A stretch of DNA of 64,000 bases from an uncultured Methanosarcinaceae archaeon (GTDB lineage: Archaea > Halobacteriota > Methanosarcinia > Methanosarcinales > Methanosarcinaceae): the NCBI GenBank assembly GCA_963847185.1, contig CAWJYV010000001.1, positions 96,001 to 160,000 on the forward strand, in the 5' to 3' direction. The stretch's first letter is position 1, and each line of letters opens with the position of its first letter. The notes below the pieces were generated by a model. The model did no database searches. It was not told where the DNA came from and worked only from the letters and a program-made list of their open reading frames with translations. Both the position numbers and the translations under genes were made by a program. This document shows positions 50,597 through 56,567 of the stretch, piece by piece.

Positions 50597-50614
50597 TCTA
50601 ACCATATCTTCTAA

Positions 50615-50864
50615 CCGACATTCTGCAGATGTTCTCAAAAAAACAACATTATTCCTGCTATTGATTTTGGAGAATTATTCAAAAATTCTCCAGTTATTAT
50701 CTCAACTGAAGCCTTGAGAATTGGGGTTAAAAGCTTTTATTAAAGGCAAAAAGGGCGAAAATTGGAGGACATTTAAAAAATATTTTTTTGAGTTACCGGG
50801 GTAGTTTCCAAAAAACGCTAGCAGGAAAAATCGTGAAAATTGTCAGACATCTGCGGAAAATCAG
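50615..50864. mobile_element. MITE, same family as 38829-39080
   Basis: CCGACATTCTGCAGATGT ... ACATCTGCGGAAAATCAG and shared interior (TCAACTGAAGCCTTG). Confidence 0.72.
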
Positions 50865-51018
50865 TTGAATTCAGCAAATTGTCACATTTCTGTTCAGACA
50901 GATGTCAGTATTTAAATAACAATTTTTGTACCTTTTTTTAGCTATTAATAAGATTTAAGGTACTTTTTGCCCCAAAAGCGAAATTTAAATATTAACAATG
51001 AATAGGATGTTTTGCCAA

Positions 51019-51032
51019 TTCACAATTGTGAA
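51019..51032. promoter_or_regulatory. Perfect 14-bp palindrome between TATA box and tRNA-Cys 1
   Basis: TTCACAATTGTGAA; TTTAAATATTAA upstream at ~50984. Confidence 0.75.
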
Positions 51033-51042
51033 TATACAAAGT

Positions 51043-51114
51043 GCCAAGATGGCAGAAAGGCTATGCAATGGGCAGCAGATCCATTTAATTTCGGTTCGAA
51101 TCCGAATCTTGGCT
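51043..51114 (+). tRNA. tRNA-Cys(GCA), variant with A33
   Basis: Acceptor GCCAAGA/TCTTGGC, U73, anticodon loop CAGCAGA, T arm TTCGG-TTCGAAT-CCGAA. Confidence 0.85.
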
Positions 51115-51313
51115 TGGGAATTTCTATGTACAGGAGGGAAAGAAAATACTTTGAGTTATCATTCCTGGAACATCTGGAAATTCTCAGAAAAGCACTAAAA
51201 ATGCTGGAAAAACATTAGGAAGGTAGAAAATGAAGAAATATGGGAAAAAATATTGGAACAGATAATATGTGAAGTTAAAGAAGGCAAAAATATGAATTCA
51301 ACAAGGTTAAAGT

Positions 51314-51790
51314 ATGAAAGGAGAGATCGTTAACGGAATACAGAATTCTGTCTTCGATCTGGATGAACATGTCGTTGAAAAGGCCTCGGAGGCTCTTGAC
51401 GATGGATTTACAGTTGAAATAATCTGGGAGGCTCTTGAGCTAATTGAGCTGTATTTTATTTTGCGTATAATGGGGCATTTGCTTCTTGAAGCGGAATATA
51501 TACTTCTCAAAGTTAGAACTAATCCTCTCCATCTGATTGAACAGAAATTTGTTCAAGCTGTAAAAATAATAGGTGGTATCCTTGAAAAAGGGAAATTCCA
51601 ACTATGGCAGATATTTAATATGTATCACATTTCAAAAGGAACAGTGATAAAAGTGCGCAGACAGTTAACAATGGAATCTAAAAAAGATACAGGGTTATAT
51701 GGGAACTTTATCATGGAGTCTGATCGCACATCAACTCGCCCTCTGGTTTCACATGTAACCGAGACTTTAACTTCATCATACTGTTGTTGA
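51314..51790 (+). CDS. Divergent corrinoid-protein cap (B12-binding_2)-like protein or remnant
   Basis: VFDLDE..VEKASEAL..G and NPLHLIEQKFVQAVKIIG..LEKG.F.L.QI resemble methyltransferase corrinoid N-terminal caps; no DxHxxG motif. Confidence 0.45.
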   Translation: MKGEIVNGIQNSVFDLDEHVVEKASEALDDGFTVEIIWEALELIELYFILRIMGHLLLEAEYILLKVRTNPLHLIEQKFVQAVKIIGGILEKGKFQLWQIFNMYHISKGTVIKVRRQLTMESKKDTGLYGNFIMESDRTSTRPLVSHVTETLTSSYCC

Positions 51791-52028
51791 TTGAGACTAT
51801 TATAAACTCCCTAACCTCCTTTTATTTTTTTCTAAGATATCTACTGCACAAAATAATTTTTACCAGAAAACTCTCTTTTTAAGCTGGAATGTTCCATAAA
51901 GTTGTGGTCTCTGCAGTTGTATATTCGTTTTCGATTTCGTTTCTGGCATCAAACATTAGAAATATTTGGATTACTTTTTGCCTTGAAAAGTAGTTTTAAA
52001 TATTAATAATGTGTATGAGTATTATCCA

Positions 52029-52042
52029 TTCACAATTGTGAA
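52029..52042. promoter_or_regulatory. Palindrome before tRNA-Cys 2
   Basis: TTCACAATTGTGAA downstream of TTTAAATATTAA. Confidence 0.75.
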
Positions 52043-52049
52043 TTGATGT

Positions 52050-52121
52050 GCCAGGGTGGCGGAAAGGCTACGCAATGGACTGCAGATCCATTTCATCCCG
52101 ATTCGATTCCGGGCTCTGGCT
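52050..52121 (+). tRNA. tRNA-Cys(GCA), A53.C61 mismatch in T stem
   Basis: GCCAGGG/CTCTGGC, loop CTGCAGA, CCCGA-TTCGATT-CCGGG, U73. Confidence 0.88.
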
Positions 52122-52256
52122 TGAAAGTTTCGTTGCAGGTACTACAAGAAAACTTTTGAAAATTTACAGTTTTCTTCGCCCTTAAATGCCGTAAAAGGCA
52201 TATTTTGCCTTGAAAAAAAGGTTTAAATATTAAAAATGAGTATGACGTGTTGCCAG

Positions 52257-52270
52257 TTCACAATTGTGAA
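52257..52270. promoter_or_regulatory. Palindrome before tRNA-Cys 3
   Basis: TTCACAATTGTGAA downstream of TTTAAATATTAA. Confidence 0.75.
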
Positions 52271-52277
52271 TTGATGT

Positions 52278-52349
52278 GCCAGGGTGGCGGAAAGGCTACG
52301 CAATGGACTGCAGATCCATTTCATCCCGGTTCGATTCCGGGCTCTGGCT
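52278..52349 (+). tRNA. tRNA-Cys(GCA)
   Basis: Canonical cloverleaf, loop CTGCAGA (G37), CCCGG-TTCGATT-CCGGG, U73. Confidence 0.95.
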
Positions 52350-52468
52350 TAAAAGTTTTCTCATAAAGGTTAGCAGAAAACTTTTAGCAAGAAAATTCCA
52401 GGGCTCTTTTTGCTCAGAAGGAGGCTCAAGAAGAATAAACAAATAAGAAATAAACAGCAAATAAAACC

Positions 52469-52482
52469 TTCACAATTGTGAA
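52469..52482. promoter_or_regulatory. Fourth TTCACAATTGTGAA palindrome, upstream of tRNA-Cys 4 and pscS
   Basis: Exact match, not immediately followed by a tRNA. Confidence 0.65.
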
Positions 52483-52593
52483 GCATAATGGCGCCAGTCA
52501 ACAAATGACTCAACTAAAAAGGTATGAAACACTCCCATTCGTAGATGAACAGACAAAACACGACTCATAAAACCCACAACCAAATTTGTGCAA

Positions 52594-52718
52594 CTCACTT
52601 TCCGCAGAAATCCACAAAATAATACCCTTCCACTCAATATGGGTATAGCCCTAAATTTTATTAGTAATATAACTATTGGGCAAATCACTCCTCAATTGTG
52701 TACATCTGCGGAACAGTG
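52594..52718. mobile_element. Short MITE related to the 38829-39080 family
   Basis: TTCCGCAGAAATCCACAA / TTGTGTACATCTGCGGAA inverted ends. Confidence 0.6.
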
Positions 52719-52745
52719 TGTATAATATAAAAAACCAGAAAAGAT

Positions 52746-52817
52746 GCTGTGATGGCGGAAAGGCTACGCGGTGGACTGCAAATCCATTACATCCCGGTTC
52801 GATTCCGGGTCTCAGCT
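52746..52817 (+). tRNA. tRNA-Cys(GCA), divergent (A37, U5.U68 mismatch), 12 nt before pscS
   Basis: GCTGTGA/TCTCAGC, loop CTGCAAA, CCCGG-TTCGATT-CCGGG, U73. Confidence 0.9.
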
Positions 52818-52829
52818 TAGGGGTAATAT

Positions 52830-54218
52830 ATGGATATAAGAACACAAAAAACATTTGAGGCACTTTTTGCCCTTGAAGATATTAGGGAGACTCTTAGACA
52901 AACACTTCCAAATATCACAAGTCCAGAAGAAGAGCATGCCATTAAAGAAGGCGTGAGCAAAGTCAGAAAAATTCTGGATGATATCGAGAACGATACCGGA
53001 ACCCCGGACATAAGAAAAATAGCTGATAATATTGATATTCGGTCCAGAGAAGAAACATACATCAATATACAGCCGATCCAGGCAGCTGGAAGGCTTACAC
53101 CAGAAGCAAGAAAAGCTCTAATAGCATATGGCGATGGCTACTCCACCTGTGATGCCTGCCGAAAACCTTTCAGGCTAGACAAAATAAGCAGTCCGCCTAT
53201 CGCTCCATTTCATGAACAACTCGCTAGCTTCGTTAATATGGATGTTGCTCGAGTAGTACCAGGCGCTAGAAGAGGATTCCAGGCAGTGGCATCCACTCTG
53301 GTCAATAAAGGAGATTTAGTAATAGTTTCATCCCTTGCTCATTATACAGAATTCCTTGCAGTAGAAGAAGCAGGAGGAATAGTTAGAGAAGTGCCCTTAA
53401 ACGAGCACAATCTTGTAACTGCAGATGCAACTGCTGAGAAAATTGAAGCAGTTAAGCAGGAAACAGGTAAACTGCCTGTACTGGTAATGATCGACCATTT
53501 TGATTACCAGTATGCCAATGAGCACGATGTAAAAAGCATTGCAAAAGTTGCGCACCAGTATGATATTCCTCTCCTGTATAACGGAGCATATACTGTTGGA
53601 GTAAGGCCAGTTGATGGAAAAGATATCGGTGCGGACTTCATCGTGGGTTCAGGCCACAAAAGCATGGCATCACCTGCACCGTCTGGAGTACTGGCAACAA
53701 CCGAGGAATGGGCTCCGAAAGTATTCCGCACAACTCAGATGACAGGTGATCTCACAAAACGCAAGTTTGGTGTAAAAGAAGTCGAGATGCTTGGCTGCAC
53801 ACTAATGGGCTCAACATTGCTGGGTATGATGGCTTCGTTCCCTACAGTTAAGGAGAGAGTAAAGAACTGGGAAGACGAGTTAAAAAAATCGAATTATCTG
53901 ATCGATGGGTTGCTTGCTATAGAAGGCAGTAAAGTAGTCTCAGAGTACCCACGAAAACATACCCTCTCCAAAGTTGACACAAGCAAGAGCTTTGATCTTA
54001 TAGCCCAGGAGCATAAACGAAGAGGTTTCTTCCTTTCAGACGAACTTTCAAGCAAGGGCATTGTCGGAGAATTTGCAGGAGCCACACGCGTTTGGAAACT
54101 TAACACATACGGGCTTTCATGGGAGAAAGTTCGCTATGTAGTAGATACATTCCAGGAAATTGCTGAAAAATACAAACTTCAGGTAAACAAGGAGAAGAAT
54201 TCCAATGGTAACAAATAA
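52830..54218 (+). CDS. pscS: O-phosphoseryl-tRNA:Cys-tRNA synthase (SepCysS) with ~60-aa N-terminal extension
   Basis: [21 protein letters not shown] (CxxC), [13 protein letters not shown] (PLP lysine), EMLGCT, KLNTYGL. Confidence 0.93.
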
Positions 54219-55500
54219 CTATAAACTGGGAACACTTGCCCTTCACGCTGGACAGGTTCCGGACCCCACAACAGGATCACGTACAGTACCGATATATCAG
54301 ACAACATCGTATGTTTTCAGGGATACTGACCATGCAGCCAACCTTTTTGGCCTTAAAGAGCTTGGCAACATCTACACCCGTATAATGAATCCTACTACTG
54401 ACGTTTTTGAACAGCGCATAGCTGCTATTGAGGGTGGAACCGGCGCTCTTGGAGTCGCTTCCGGCTCGGCAGCAATAACTTATGCCCTGTTAGCGATTAC
54501 GCGGATAGGGGACGAAATAATATCCGGAAACAACCTCTACGGGGGAACCTATGAACTTTTCAATTACACTTTCCCCAAGCTGGGAAGAAAAGTAACATTT
54601 GTAGATTCGACTGATATAGAAGCCTACCAAAAGGCAGTCAATGAAAAGACCAGGGCTATTTATATTGAGTCTGTTGGAAACCCTAAACTTGATATTCCGG
54701 ATTTTGAGGCAATTGCAGATATTGCTCACAGAGCCGGAGTTCCGCTTGTTGTAGACAATACAAGTGCTGTAGGACTTGTCCGGCCCATTGATCATGGAGC
54801 AGATATTGTTGTACATTCTGCAACCAAATTCATTGGCGGGCATGGAAACTCAATTGGAGGTTCAATTGTCGATTCCGGAAAGTTCTCCTGGAACAACGGC
54901 AAGTTCCCGGAATTAACAGATCCTGATCCAAGCTACCATGGTTTAAAATACTGGGATACCTTTTCAGATTTTCCTGGGCTTGGGAATGTGGCATTTGTCT
55001 TTAAAGTAAGGTTGCAGCTTCTTCGAGACACAGGTGCTGCGATTTCACCTTTTAATTCGTTCCTGCTGCTTCAGGGACTTGAAACCCTGCATCTAAGGAT
55101 ACAGAGACACTCAGAAAACGCCCTCAAGGTAGCACAATATCTTTCAAAACATCCTAAGGTCTCATGGGTCAATTATCCCGGTTTACCGGATCATCCAAGC
55201 CATAAACTTGCATCCAGATATCTCAAAGGCGGATATGGTGCGTTGCTGGGTTTCGGCGTGAAAGGCGGTGCTGAAGCAGGTAAAAAGTTTATTAACAATC
55301 TGGAACTGTTTTCACACGTCGCAAATATCGGAGATTCAAAGAGCCTCGTTATTCATCCTGCAACTACCACACATCAGCAGCTTACGCCGGCTGAGCAGGA
55401 AGCTACAGGTGTTAAACCGGATTATATACGCCTTTCCATAGGTATTGAGGATATAGAAGATATAATCTCAGATCTAAAACAAGCTCTGGAGAAAGTGTAA
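54205..55500 (+). CDS. metY: O-acetylhomoserine aminocarboxypropyltransferase / sulfhydrylase
   Basis: [54 protein letters not shown]; overlaps pscS by 14 nt. Confidence 0.92.
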
Positions 55501-55660: not shown

Positions 55661-56567
55661 ATGACATTCATGGACTTCGAAAAATTACGACACGGGACCG
55701 AACTTATCAAGCGGGGCTTTGCACGGATGCAGAAAGGGGGTGTGATCATGGACGTTACAACTCCCGAACAGGCCCGGATCGCAGAAGAAGCCGGAGCAGT
55801 TGCCGTTATGGCTCTTCAGGCTGTCCCCGCAGATATCAGGAAAGCCGGGGGAGTTGCCCGGATGGCAGACCCTGAAATCGTTCAAAAAATCATTGATACG
55901 GTCACAATTCCTGTAATGGCAAAAGCCAGGATCGGGCACTTCGTAGAGGCTGAAATATCTAGAAGCCCTTGGCGTTGACATGGTGGACGAATCAGAAGTC
56001 CTGACCCCTGCTGACCCTTACTACCACATAGACAAGACACAGTTTACCGTTCCTTTTGTCTGCGGAGCCAGAAACCTTGGAGAAGCTCTTCGCAGAATTA
56101 ATGAAGGGGCAGCCATGATCCGGACAAAAGGAGAAGCCGGAACTGGAGATGTCAGCCAGGCAGTAAAGCACATGAAGCAGATTCAGGGAGAAATCCGTGC
56201 CCTTGCCGGAAAAACCAAAGAAGAACTCATTCTGGTTGCAAGGGAAATAGAAGCTCCTATAGAACTTGTTGTCGAAACCGCAAAAATGCAGCGCCTTCCG
56301 GTAGTAAACTTTGCAGCAGGCGGAGTTGCAACTCCTGCAGATGCAGCACTTATGATGCGCCTTGGAGCAGACGGAGTTTTTGTGGGCTCAGGAATTTTCA
56401 AAGCCGAAAACCCTGAAAAGATGGCAAAGGCAATTGTTGAAGCAGTCAACAACTTTGACAACCCTGCAAAACTAGCAGAAATCTCAAAAGGCGTGGGTGC
56501 AGGCATGAAAGGCATCAGCGCAGATATGATCCCTGCTGCAGAAGCTCTCCAGGAACGCGGGTGGTAA
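55661..56567 (+). pseudogene. pdxS: PLP synthase lyase subunit with a single frameshift near 55958 (possibly an assembly error)
   Basis: [22 protein letters not shown] then [39 protein letters not shown]. Confidence 0.9.

Follow-up and report, generated by a model that had tools for sequence, protein, structure and literature searches.

How should a tRNA gene be read when it departs from one of the most conserved nucleotides in biology, the uridine at position 33 (U33) of the anticodon loop? The question is raised by a tRNA-Cys(GCA) gene, here called Cys1, in the genome of an uncultured Methanosarcinaceae archaeon (GenBank assembly GCA_963847185.1; 4.04 Mb in 10 contigs, 99.8% complete; denoted G000, its relatives being numbered likewise). 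The 64,000-nt stretch that was analysed (contig CAWJYV010000001.1, positions 96,001 to 160,000; C1:96001-160000 in our numbering) is referred to as the window. Within it, four divergent tRNA-Cys genes form an array directly upstream of a SepCysS gene (Table 1), and the foremost of these, Cys1, carries adenosine in place of U33. The original prediction held that this tRNA may be charged by SepRS/SepCysS and decode poorly, acting as a non-translating carrier for cysteine synthesis. From its sequence and that of its relatives, Cys1 is best explained as a working tRNA-Cys paralogue rather than a wreck, and we propose with moderate confidence that it is a regulated, chargeable isoacceptor in which A33 is tolerated.

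ARAGORN and the Rfam tRNA model RF00005 both bear out the predicted tRNA-Cys with the loop CAGCAGA, the latter being matched by Infernal over its full length (model positions 1-71) at 48.1 bits, against a gathering threshold of 29, with 0 non-standard pairs flagged. Both programs return a 7/4/5/5-bp cloverleaf with 7-nt anticodon and T loops, laid out as GCCAAGA UG GCAG AAAGGCU AUGC A AUGGG CAGCAGA UCCAU UUAAU UUCGG UUCGAAU CCGAA UCUUGGC U, in which the anticodon loop reads C32 A33 G34 C35 A36 G37 A38 and the nucleotides of the tertiary interactions (U8, A14, G18G19, T54-T55-C56 and A58) are all present. What is missing from the pattern of a canonical elongator tRNA is the U-turn nucleotide itself; ARAGORN found U33 in 63 of the 64 tRNA genes of the whole genome, Cys1 being the sole exception. 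Archaeal tRNACys is recognized by SepRS and CysRS through G34 C35 A36, U73, G1:C72 and m1G37, with G15 and A47 as weaker elements and A59 as a minor SepRS-specific one (PMC9976931, PMC9499178). As originally claimed, Cys1 keeps the GCA anticodon, the U73 discriminator, G1:C72 and an encoded G37 (a statement at DNA level, methylation to m1G37 being invisible there), and it carries A47 and A59. Its acceptor and T stems differ from those of the neighbouring copies Cys2 and Cys3 by paired changes, and it has A12:U23 and G31:U39 where these have G12:C23 and A31:U39.

A BLAST search with Cys1 over 59 genomes of the genus, followed by ARAGORN on the loci, recovered this window-type A33 tRNA in the genomes of two other species, G052 (2 differences, at positions 26 and 64) and G002 (10 differences), in both at the syntenic place just upstream of a conserved open reading frame (ORF), orf158. 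Because the variant recurs there, a read or assembly error, or a peculiarity of this one assembly, for which the original prediction had left room, is excluded. Six of the 10 differences from G002 form three compensatory pairs (5:68, 49:65 and 50:64), 3 are unpaired and the remaining one turns G29:C41 into G:U, so that 0 pairs are broken and the fold is maintained, as the original prediction had it. Identity between G000 and G002 is 87% in the tRNA, 68% in the 150 nt upstream and 70% in the spacer. Since the changes are compensatory and the tRNA is better conserved than its flanks, Cys1 is under selection as a folded tRNA.

Table 1. Coordinates of Cys1, its upstream elements and the neighbouring features in the window.
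Feature	Position	Strand	Remarks
TATA-like box TTTAAATA	50984..50991	+	59 nt upstream of Cys1; preceded by A-rich gcgaaa resembling a B recognition element (BRE)
Perfect 14-nt palindrome TTCACAATTGTGAA, putative operator	51019..51032	.	-24 to -11 of Cys1, near the predicted transcription start
tRNA-Cys(GCA) Cys1	51043..51114	+	72 nt, CCA not encoded; ARAGORN, Rfam RF00005, syntenic copies in G052 and G002
Cys1 anticodon loop CAGCAGA	51073..51079	+	A33 at 51074, GCA at 51075-51077, G37 at 51078
orf158, 158 residues	51314..51790	+	between Cys1 and Cys2; no known family; tblastn synteny, alignment
Palindrome (52029-52042) and tRNA-Cys Cys2 (52050-52121)	52029..52121	+	U33
Palindrome (52257-52270) and tRNA-Cys Cys3 (52278-52349)	52257..52349	+	U33
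Fourth exact palindrome	52469..52482	.	no tRNA directly behind; 264 nt upstream of Cys4
tRNA-Cys Cys4	52746..52817	+	loop CUGCAAA (A37 for G37); 12 nt before the SepCysS start codon
SepCysS2, 462 residues	52830..54218	+	NCBIfam TIGR02539 413 bits (cut-off 365), NF006810 636 bits
O-acetylhomoserine sulfhydrylase (OAHS; homocysteine synthase)	54205..55500	+	Pfam Cys_Met_Meta_PP 462 bits, TIGR01326 674 bits; overlaps the SepCysS stop

The upstream elements that the original prediction described as kept are indeed shared between the copies. TTTAAATA, which we infer to act as a promoter, recurs at -55 and -56 before Cys2 and Cys3, and TTCACAATTGTGAA at -21 to -8 of both; three of the four array tRNAs, Cys1 included, thus have both elements, and Cys4 has neither in exact form. 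Promoter and palindrome are also intact at the A33 copy of G002. The fourth exact palindrome of the array has a counterpart at the equivalent place in G052, G017, G004 and G058, and the palindrome precedes array tRNAs in 8 other genomes. Its position ~25 nt past the TATA box suggests that a repressor may bind there, where transcription would begin. Seven exact copies are present in the whole genome, compared with an expectation of ~0.04 from base composition: the four of the array and one each at C1:232643, C9:34205 and C10:183694. One exact copy is found ~400 nt upstream of a gene for a MetX-like homoserine acetyltransferase (alpha/beta hydrolase with two CBS domains) and another between a Prismane-family gene and a methyltransferase/tRNA-Thr-ED pair, and the remaining exact or one-mismatch copies precede a radical-SAM gene beside an NMT1-type ABC transporter, a small ORF with a helix-turn-helix gene, and the tRNA-Cys at C1:218650. 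The palindrome resembles an operator shared by a sulfur-amino-acid regulon comprising the array with SepCysS2 and OAHS, the MetX-like, Prismane-family and radical-SAM genes and tRNA-Thr-ED. A literature search found no paper combining the palindrome core with Methanosarcina. The locus around C1:218650 (C1:218093-218720; L070:2093-2720) consists of a one-mismatch palindrome, a decayed-looking tRNA and then a 71-nt tRNA-Cys whose D arm is unusual.

The array (51043-52817) leads directly into SepCysS2 and OAHS, so that a tRNA-Cys stands next to a SepCysS gene in the company of sulfur metabolism; a purine-rich AGGGG lies in the 12 nt between Cys4 and the ATG of SepCysS2 (Cys4 and this spacer together span window 52746-52829). 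On this context the SepRS/SepCysS link made in the original prediction is plausible. SepCysS2 has an N-terminal extension of ~60-75 residues and shares 41% identity over residues 78-449 with the other SepCysS of the genome (C8:87915-89003). Orthologues with at least 85% identity are present in 26 of the 59 genus genomes, and 4 more carry members of a clade at ~70%. Long stretches fetched from G052, G002, G017, G051, G004, G007, G058 and G057 all have the same gene order (8/8, or 9 with G000), namely one or more palindrome-tRNA units, orf158, further palindrome-tRNA units, a tRNA, SepCysS2 and OAHS. Among 24 loci with a full-length SepCysS2 at or above 85% identity, 21 have an array-type tRNA-Cys ending 10-13 nt before the start codon, with the loop CUGCAAA, UUGCAAC, CUGCAAC or CUGCAGA in the relatives. 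These variants mean that the tRNA before SepCysS2 often loses G37, a reported SepRS/CysRS determinant.

Linkage of this kind is already published, tRNACys genes having been associated with clade VII SepCysS genes, which have SepCysSN fused, by Mukai et al. (2017, mBio, PMC5424206). The window shares with their description a tRNA-Cys directly before an N-extended SepCysS and an adjoining sulfur-metabolism gene, here OAHS, and the genome likewise has a tRNA-Thr-ED gene, near another copy of the palindrome (PMC5424206). Their main text speaks of 'a tRNACys gene' and makes no mention of arrays, the palindrome or A33, A37 and C38 variants, the strings 'A33' and 'U33' having 0 occurrences (PMC5424206).

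Three further features deserve description. The product of orf158 is kept within the tRNA arrays of 8 genomes at 51-94% identity, with a nearly invariant C-terminus ending in ..SSYCC; Pfam holds no family that matches it, its sole NCBIfam match falls below the cut-off (E 0.0053), and its AlphaFold2 model is uninformative (mean predicted local distance difference test score, pLDDT, 54). Beyond OAHS, pdxS (SOR_SNZ; window 55661-56567) is divided into two ORFs, apparently through the insertion of one base near 55958: the two parts are 22 nt apart in G000 and 21 nt apart, with the frame continuous, in G052 and G007. Either a genuine frameshift or a fault of the assembly may lie behind this. Finally, a tRNA-Cys of a third type, with the loop CUGCAAC, stands alone in G000 at C2:49490-49561 on the minus strand, and in G040, G013, G014 and G027 it ends ~41-45 nt before a SepCysS of the ~70%-identical clade.

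Cysteine tRNA genes are abundant in this genome, making up 10 of its 64 tRNA genes (which also include tRNA-Pyl), and cysteine accounts for 1.11% of the residues in 1238 long ORFs. Beside the four in the window, they comprise four ordinary-looking genes clustered at C8:1424-2517, the 71-nt gene at C1:218650 and the third-type gene at C2:49490. SepRS, CysRS and two SepCysS genes were found, and neither CysK nor CysE was detected above the NCBIfam cut-offs in this 99.8% complete genome, so the tRNA route may be its sole way of making cysteine. Across the genus, CysK exceeds the cut-off in 43 of the 59 genomes. We considered whether the SepCysS2 module replaces CysK and rejected the idea, as CysK is over the cut-off in 21 of the 26 SepCysS2 genomes, G000 itself being without it.

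Is A33 confined to the array? The original prediction pointed to an A33 isoacceptor discussed for Methanosarcina mazei, and such a tRNA is real. A pattern search of the 59 genomes, requiring a T loop downstream of CAGCAGA, gave 33 matches in 31 genomes, of which 25 are of an M. mazei type, 3 of the window type and 5 not tRNA-like (four without an ARAGORN call, the fifth, G057:C1:1383100, judged by eye). The M. mazei type has a housekeeping-type body (AUCGC CAGCAGA GCGAU ... CCUGG UUCAAAU CCGGA) and is present as one gene in each of 25 genomes; ARAGORN confirmed tRNA-Cys in all 23 of these matches for which the locus was extracted. Nine distinct sequence variants occur, all with A33. M. mazei tRNACys isoacceptors are said to have been studied by Hauenstein and Perona in 2008. 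U33 versions of the same body are found in the housekeeping clusters of G000, G002 and G040, and G000 has no A33 copy of it. Letter for letter, the gene is the M. mazei tRNACys transcript of Yanagisawa et al. (2015, PMC4329189), which was charged in vitro by M. mazei CysRS, and the Cys-tRNACys made from it was protected against hydrolysis by the SelB-like protein MM1309 (PMC4329189). By this match the genus of the 59 genomes is evidently Methanosarcina. A tRNA-Cys with A33 is thus no novelty in this genus, though apparently undiscussed: a literature search found no paper pairing A33 with tRNACys or SepRS, and among the papers listed as pairing U33 with Methanosarcina none, judged by title and abstract, concerns tRNA-Cys.

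Cys1 and the M. mazei isoacceptor share the loop CAGCAGA, U73, G1:C72 and a class I cloverleaf of 72 nt. They are nevertheless different paralogues rather than orthologues, identical at 53 of 72 ungapped positions, the M. mazei tRNA having an AUCGC/GCGAU anticodon stem, a housekeeping-type D loop with G15 and the T loop UUCAAAU, none of which is found in Cys1. The M. mazei-type gene is a lone gene at another locus; in G010 its promoter is strong and of the ordinary kind, the palindrome is absent, and the adjacent genes have nothing to do with sulfur. Nor does it show a tie to SepCysS2, which 13 of its 25 carriers possess and 12 lack. By the same pattern, 31 of the 59 genus genomes, several of them complete, have no detectable A33 tRNA-Cys. 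A family-level scan covered 177 genomes in 16 genera, and in the 118 genomes of the 15 other genera it gave 10 pattern matches, none a tRNA by ARAGORN. None of the three window-type carriers has the M. mazei-type gene; we make no claim of a complementary distribution, as the chance of this is ~0.19 (34 of 59 genomes lack the gene) with kinship ignored.

Variation within the two families shows where constraint lies. We collected 50 distinct array-type sequences, the sampling following the fetching of loci, and parsed 48 of them by fixed positions. With the constitutive G13.A22 left out, 929 of 960 stem cells hold standard pairs, and covariation is abundant (at 3:70, for instance, 17 sequences have U:A and 28 have C:G, and at 5:68 there are 21 with A:U and 23 with G:C). 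G34, A36, U73, G18G19 and T54T55C56 are invariant, and loop positions related to decoding vary: 5 sequences have U32, 3 have A33, 12 have A37 and 6 have C38, most of those with A37 or C38 being the copy that immediately precedes SepCysS2. Across 23 distinct sequences of the housekeeping type the loop varies at position 33 alone, where 9 have A. Two array members have other anticodons in a tRNA-Cys body, namely a 73-nt one with ACA in G002 (L076:3525-3597), left unnamed by ARAGORN, and one with GUA in G038 (L103:930-1000), called tRNA-Tyr.

How A33 bears on decoding can be gauged from other natural tRNAs. U33 stabilises the sharp turn required for efficient decoding, and a 2024 review calls the role of A33 'unexplored' (PMC11415595). 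Natural tRNAs without U33 include the bacterial tRNAProX family, with A33, and Candida tRNASer(CAG), with a G33 that curtails decoding (PMC11415595). Like Cys1, these have the exceptional nucleotide in an otherwise normal cloverleaf; unlike Cys1, in which identity and anticodon agree (Cys/GCA), they combine an identity-anticodon mismatch with mistranslation (PMC11415595). As tRNAProX mistranslates, an A33 tRNA can decode (PMC11415595), and from these statements A33 plausibly lowers decoding and need not abolish it.

We propose that the array is co-regulated with sulfur-amino-acid genes and would supply extra tRNA-Cys for the SepRS to SepCysS route, for CysRS or for both, and that A33, replacing the U of the anticodon U-turn, would be a tolerated change in a highly redundant family of 10 tRNA-Cys genes, probably lowering the decoding efficiency of Cys1 without abolishing its charging. 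We infer, that is, that Cys1 is expressed, regulated through the palindrome and charged, and that A33 affects its decoding.

Several observations weigh against this proposal. Among the four copies in the window Cys1 scores lowest with the Rfam model (48.1, 49.0, 55.0 and 54.5 bits for Cys1 to Cys4), its anticodon stem closes with G:U, and two pairs of its T stem are A:U instead of the G:C of its neighbours. The weaker Cys determinant G15 is missing, Cys1 having A15 like every other one of the 48 array sequences parsed. Upstream of the A33 copy in G052 the palindrome survives only in a decayed form, TTCATATCTGTGAA (L075:14140-14170), the tRNA itself being kept. Contigs at least 90% alike from four public RNA runs give no cover over 50600-51219, though contigs cannot show transcripts and the runs found held only 0.05-0.11 of the sampled words; those of relatives cover parts of the region from Cys3 to SepCysS2, including a 626-nt contig over 52399-53023 with 40 differences and a 205-nt contig of depth 966 that overlaps Cys3. 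Retention of A33 over short divergences is expected under neutrality (~0.86 per site at 86% identity). The window type is rare as well: it accounts for 3 of the 50 distinct array sequences, and a pattern for it matched nothing in metagenome contigs; once position 33 was left free, that pattern yielded 51 matches on 47 stretches, each with U33 and A31.

The history of the window type is not one of simple descent either. In a quick maximum-likelihood tree of SepCysS2 (28 rows) G000 and G052 are sisters (Shimodaira-Hasegawa-like approximate likelihood ratio test, SH-aLRT, 99) and G002 belongs to another supported clade, so the three A33 carriers need at least two changes, and a single origin is not upheld. 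The tRNA at the same position in G017, G051 and G007 has U33, A31 and G12:C23. Outside positions 12, 23, 31 and 33 the G002 copy has 3 differences from the U33 orthologue of G051 and 10 from G000, and the four shared states lie within a single tract of 22 nt. This pattern would be expected alike from gene conversion, from descent with loss and from parallel change.

Of the competing explanations, the one that survives best is that Cys1 is a redundant copy drifting towards a pseudogene, with A33, G31:U39 and the A:U-rich stems as early decay under weak selection. The low score, the weaker stems, the rarity of the variant and the decayed operator of G052 would all be accounted for, as would the aberrant array members with ACA and GUA. 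Thermodynamic folding could be added, the minimum free energy structure of Cys1 having a C32-G37 pair and a 4-nt loop; in the same model the G002 copy and the M. mazei-type gene form no cloverleaf, and we judged folding uninformative. The three compensatory pair changes without a broken pair between G000 and G002, however, are not what drift predicts, nor is a tRNA far better conserved than its flanks, with G18G19, T54T55C56, U8, A14, GCA and U73 intact and with promoter and operator intact in G000 and G002. The M. mazei-type gene, kept in 25 genomes with A33 in all 9 variants, also argues against A33 as a mark of decay, and we regard drift as possible though doubtful.

A second explanation is the one originally put forward, that Cys1 is a dedicated non-decoding carrier, charged by SepRS, converted by SepCysS and kept off the ribosome by A33; it would then be a scaffold on which cysteine is made instead of a means of inserting it, and would channel cysteine to sulfur metabolism. 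The textbook tRNAs kept from translation are the non-proteinogenic tRNAGly of Staphylococcus, glycine donors for the cell wall, in which altered G18G19/T-loop and T-stem elements weaken EF-Tu binding. They resemble the array in being isoacceptors beyond translational need with a proposed role as carriers outside the ribosome, and differ from Cys1 in that it keeps G18G19 and UUCGAAU and deviates in the anticodon loop. To our knowledge no enzyme has been proposed to free cysteine from such a carrier, which counts against the idea. Consistent with it are the 12 nt between array and SepCysS gene, a tRNA-Cys gene number far above translational need, the lack of CysK and CysE above the cut-offs in G000, and the appearance of A33 in two tRNA-Cys paralogue families of one genus, as is the curtailed decoding of the G33 Candida tRNASer (PMC11415595). 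Loop variation in the array beside invariant identity elements (G34, A36, U73), and a housekeeping loop variable solely at position 33, also fit; relaxed selection on surplus copies would give this pattern too. Against a carrier, A33 tRNAs of the tRNAProX family mistranslate and so decode (PMC11415595), and the M. mazei A33 transcript is charged by CysRS rather than by SepRS alone (PMC4329189). The M. mazei-type gene, moreover, has an ordinary strong promoter without palindrome or sulfur-gene neighbours and occurs with and without SepCysS2 almost evenly, more than half of the genus genomes (31 of 59) have no pattern-detectable A33 tRNA-Cys, and CysK in 21 of 26 SepCysS2 genomes indicates that the module has not replaced the tRNA-independent route. 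We consider a dedicated carrier unlikely.

A broader conjecture, which we think improbable and offer as speculation, is that SepCysS2-linked arrays as a whole would form a scaffold pool for making cysteine on tRNA under a sulfur-responsive operator. Selection would then act on fold and synthetase identity and not on decoding, and loops that impair decoding (A33, A37, C38 and U32) would be tolerated or even favoured for keeping Sep- and Cys-tRNA off the ribosome, with A33 recruited at least twice in the genus, in the housekeeping-type M. mazei gene and in the array gene. In the array gene A33 is each time accompanied by A12:U23 and G31.

G000 also encodes a 350-residue SelB/EF-Tu-like protein (C7:36757-37809; L125:1435-2487) whose entire length is matched by PDB 3wnb/3wnc/3wnd at 697 bits, entries that are presumably MM1309 structures, the protein itself presumably being a homologue of the Cys-tRNACys-binding MM1309. 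Although this match and the protection of Cys-tRNACys made from the A33 transcript (PMC4329189) would allow Cys1 to serve a special partner of this kind instead of EF1A and the ribosome, or to function as an RNA that regulates the sulfur regulon or acts as its sensor, such a role is very improbable, since MM1309 homologues are conserved in many genera (PMC4329189) and A33 tRNA-Cys was found in this genus alone among the 16 scanned, the accessible text of that study reports no U33 control (PMC4329189), and a regulatory target is not evident.

The regulated, chargeable isoacceptor is therefore the reading with which we end. The genus offers two independent lineages of A33 tRNA-Cys, the M. mazei one, which belongs to a model organism and has been charged in vitro, and the array one, which stands beside a cysteine-synthesis gene with a putative operator. 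Together they open the question of whether a tRNA can be tuned toward amino-acid synthesis over decoding; if A33 proves neutral, they would provide a calibration of the importance of U33 in archaeal translation.

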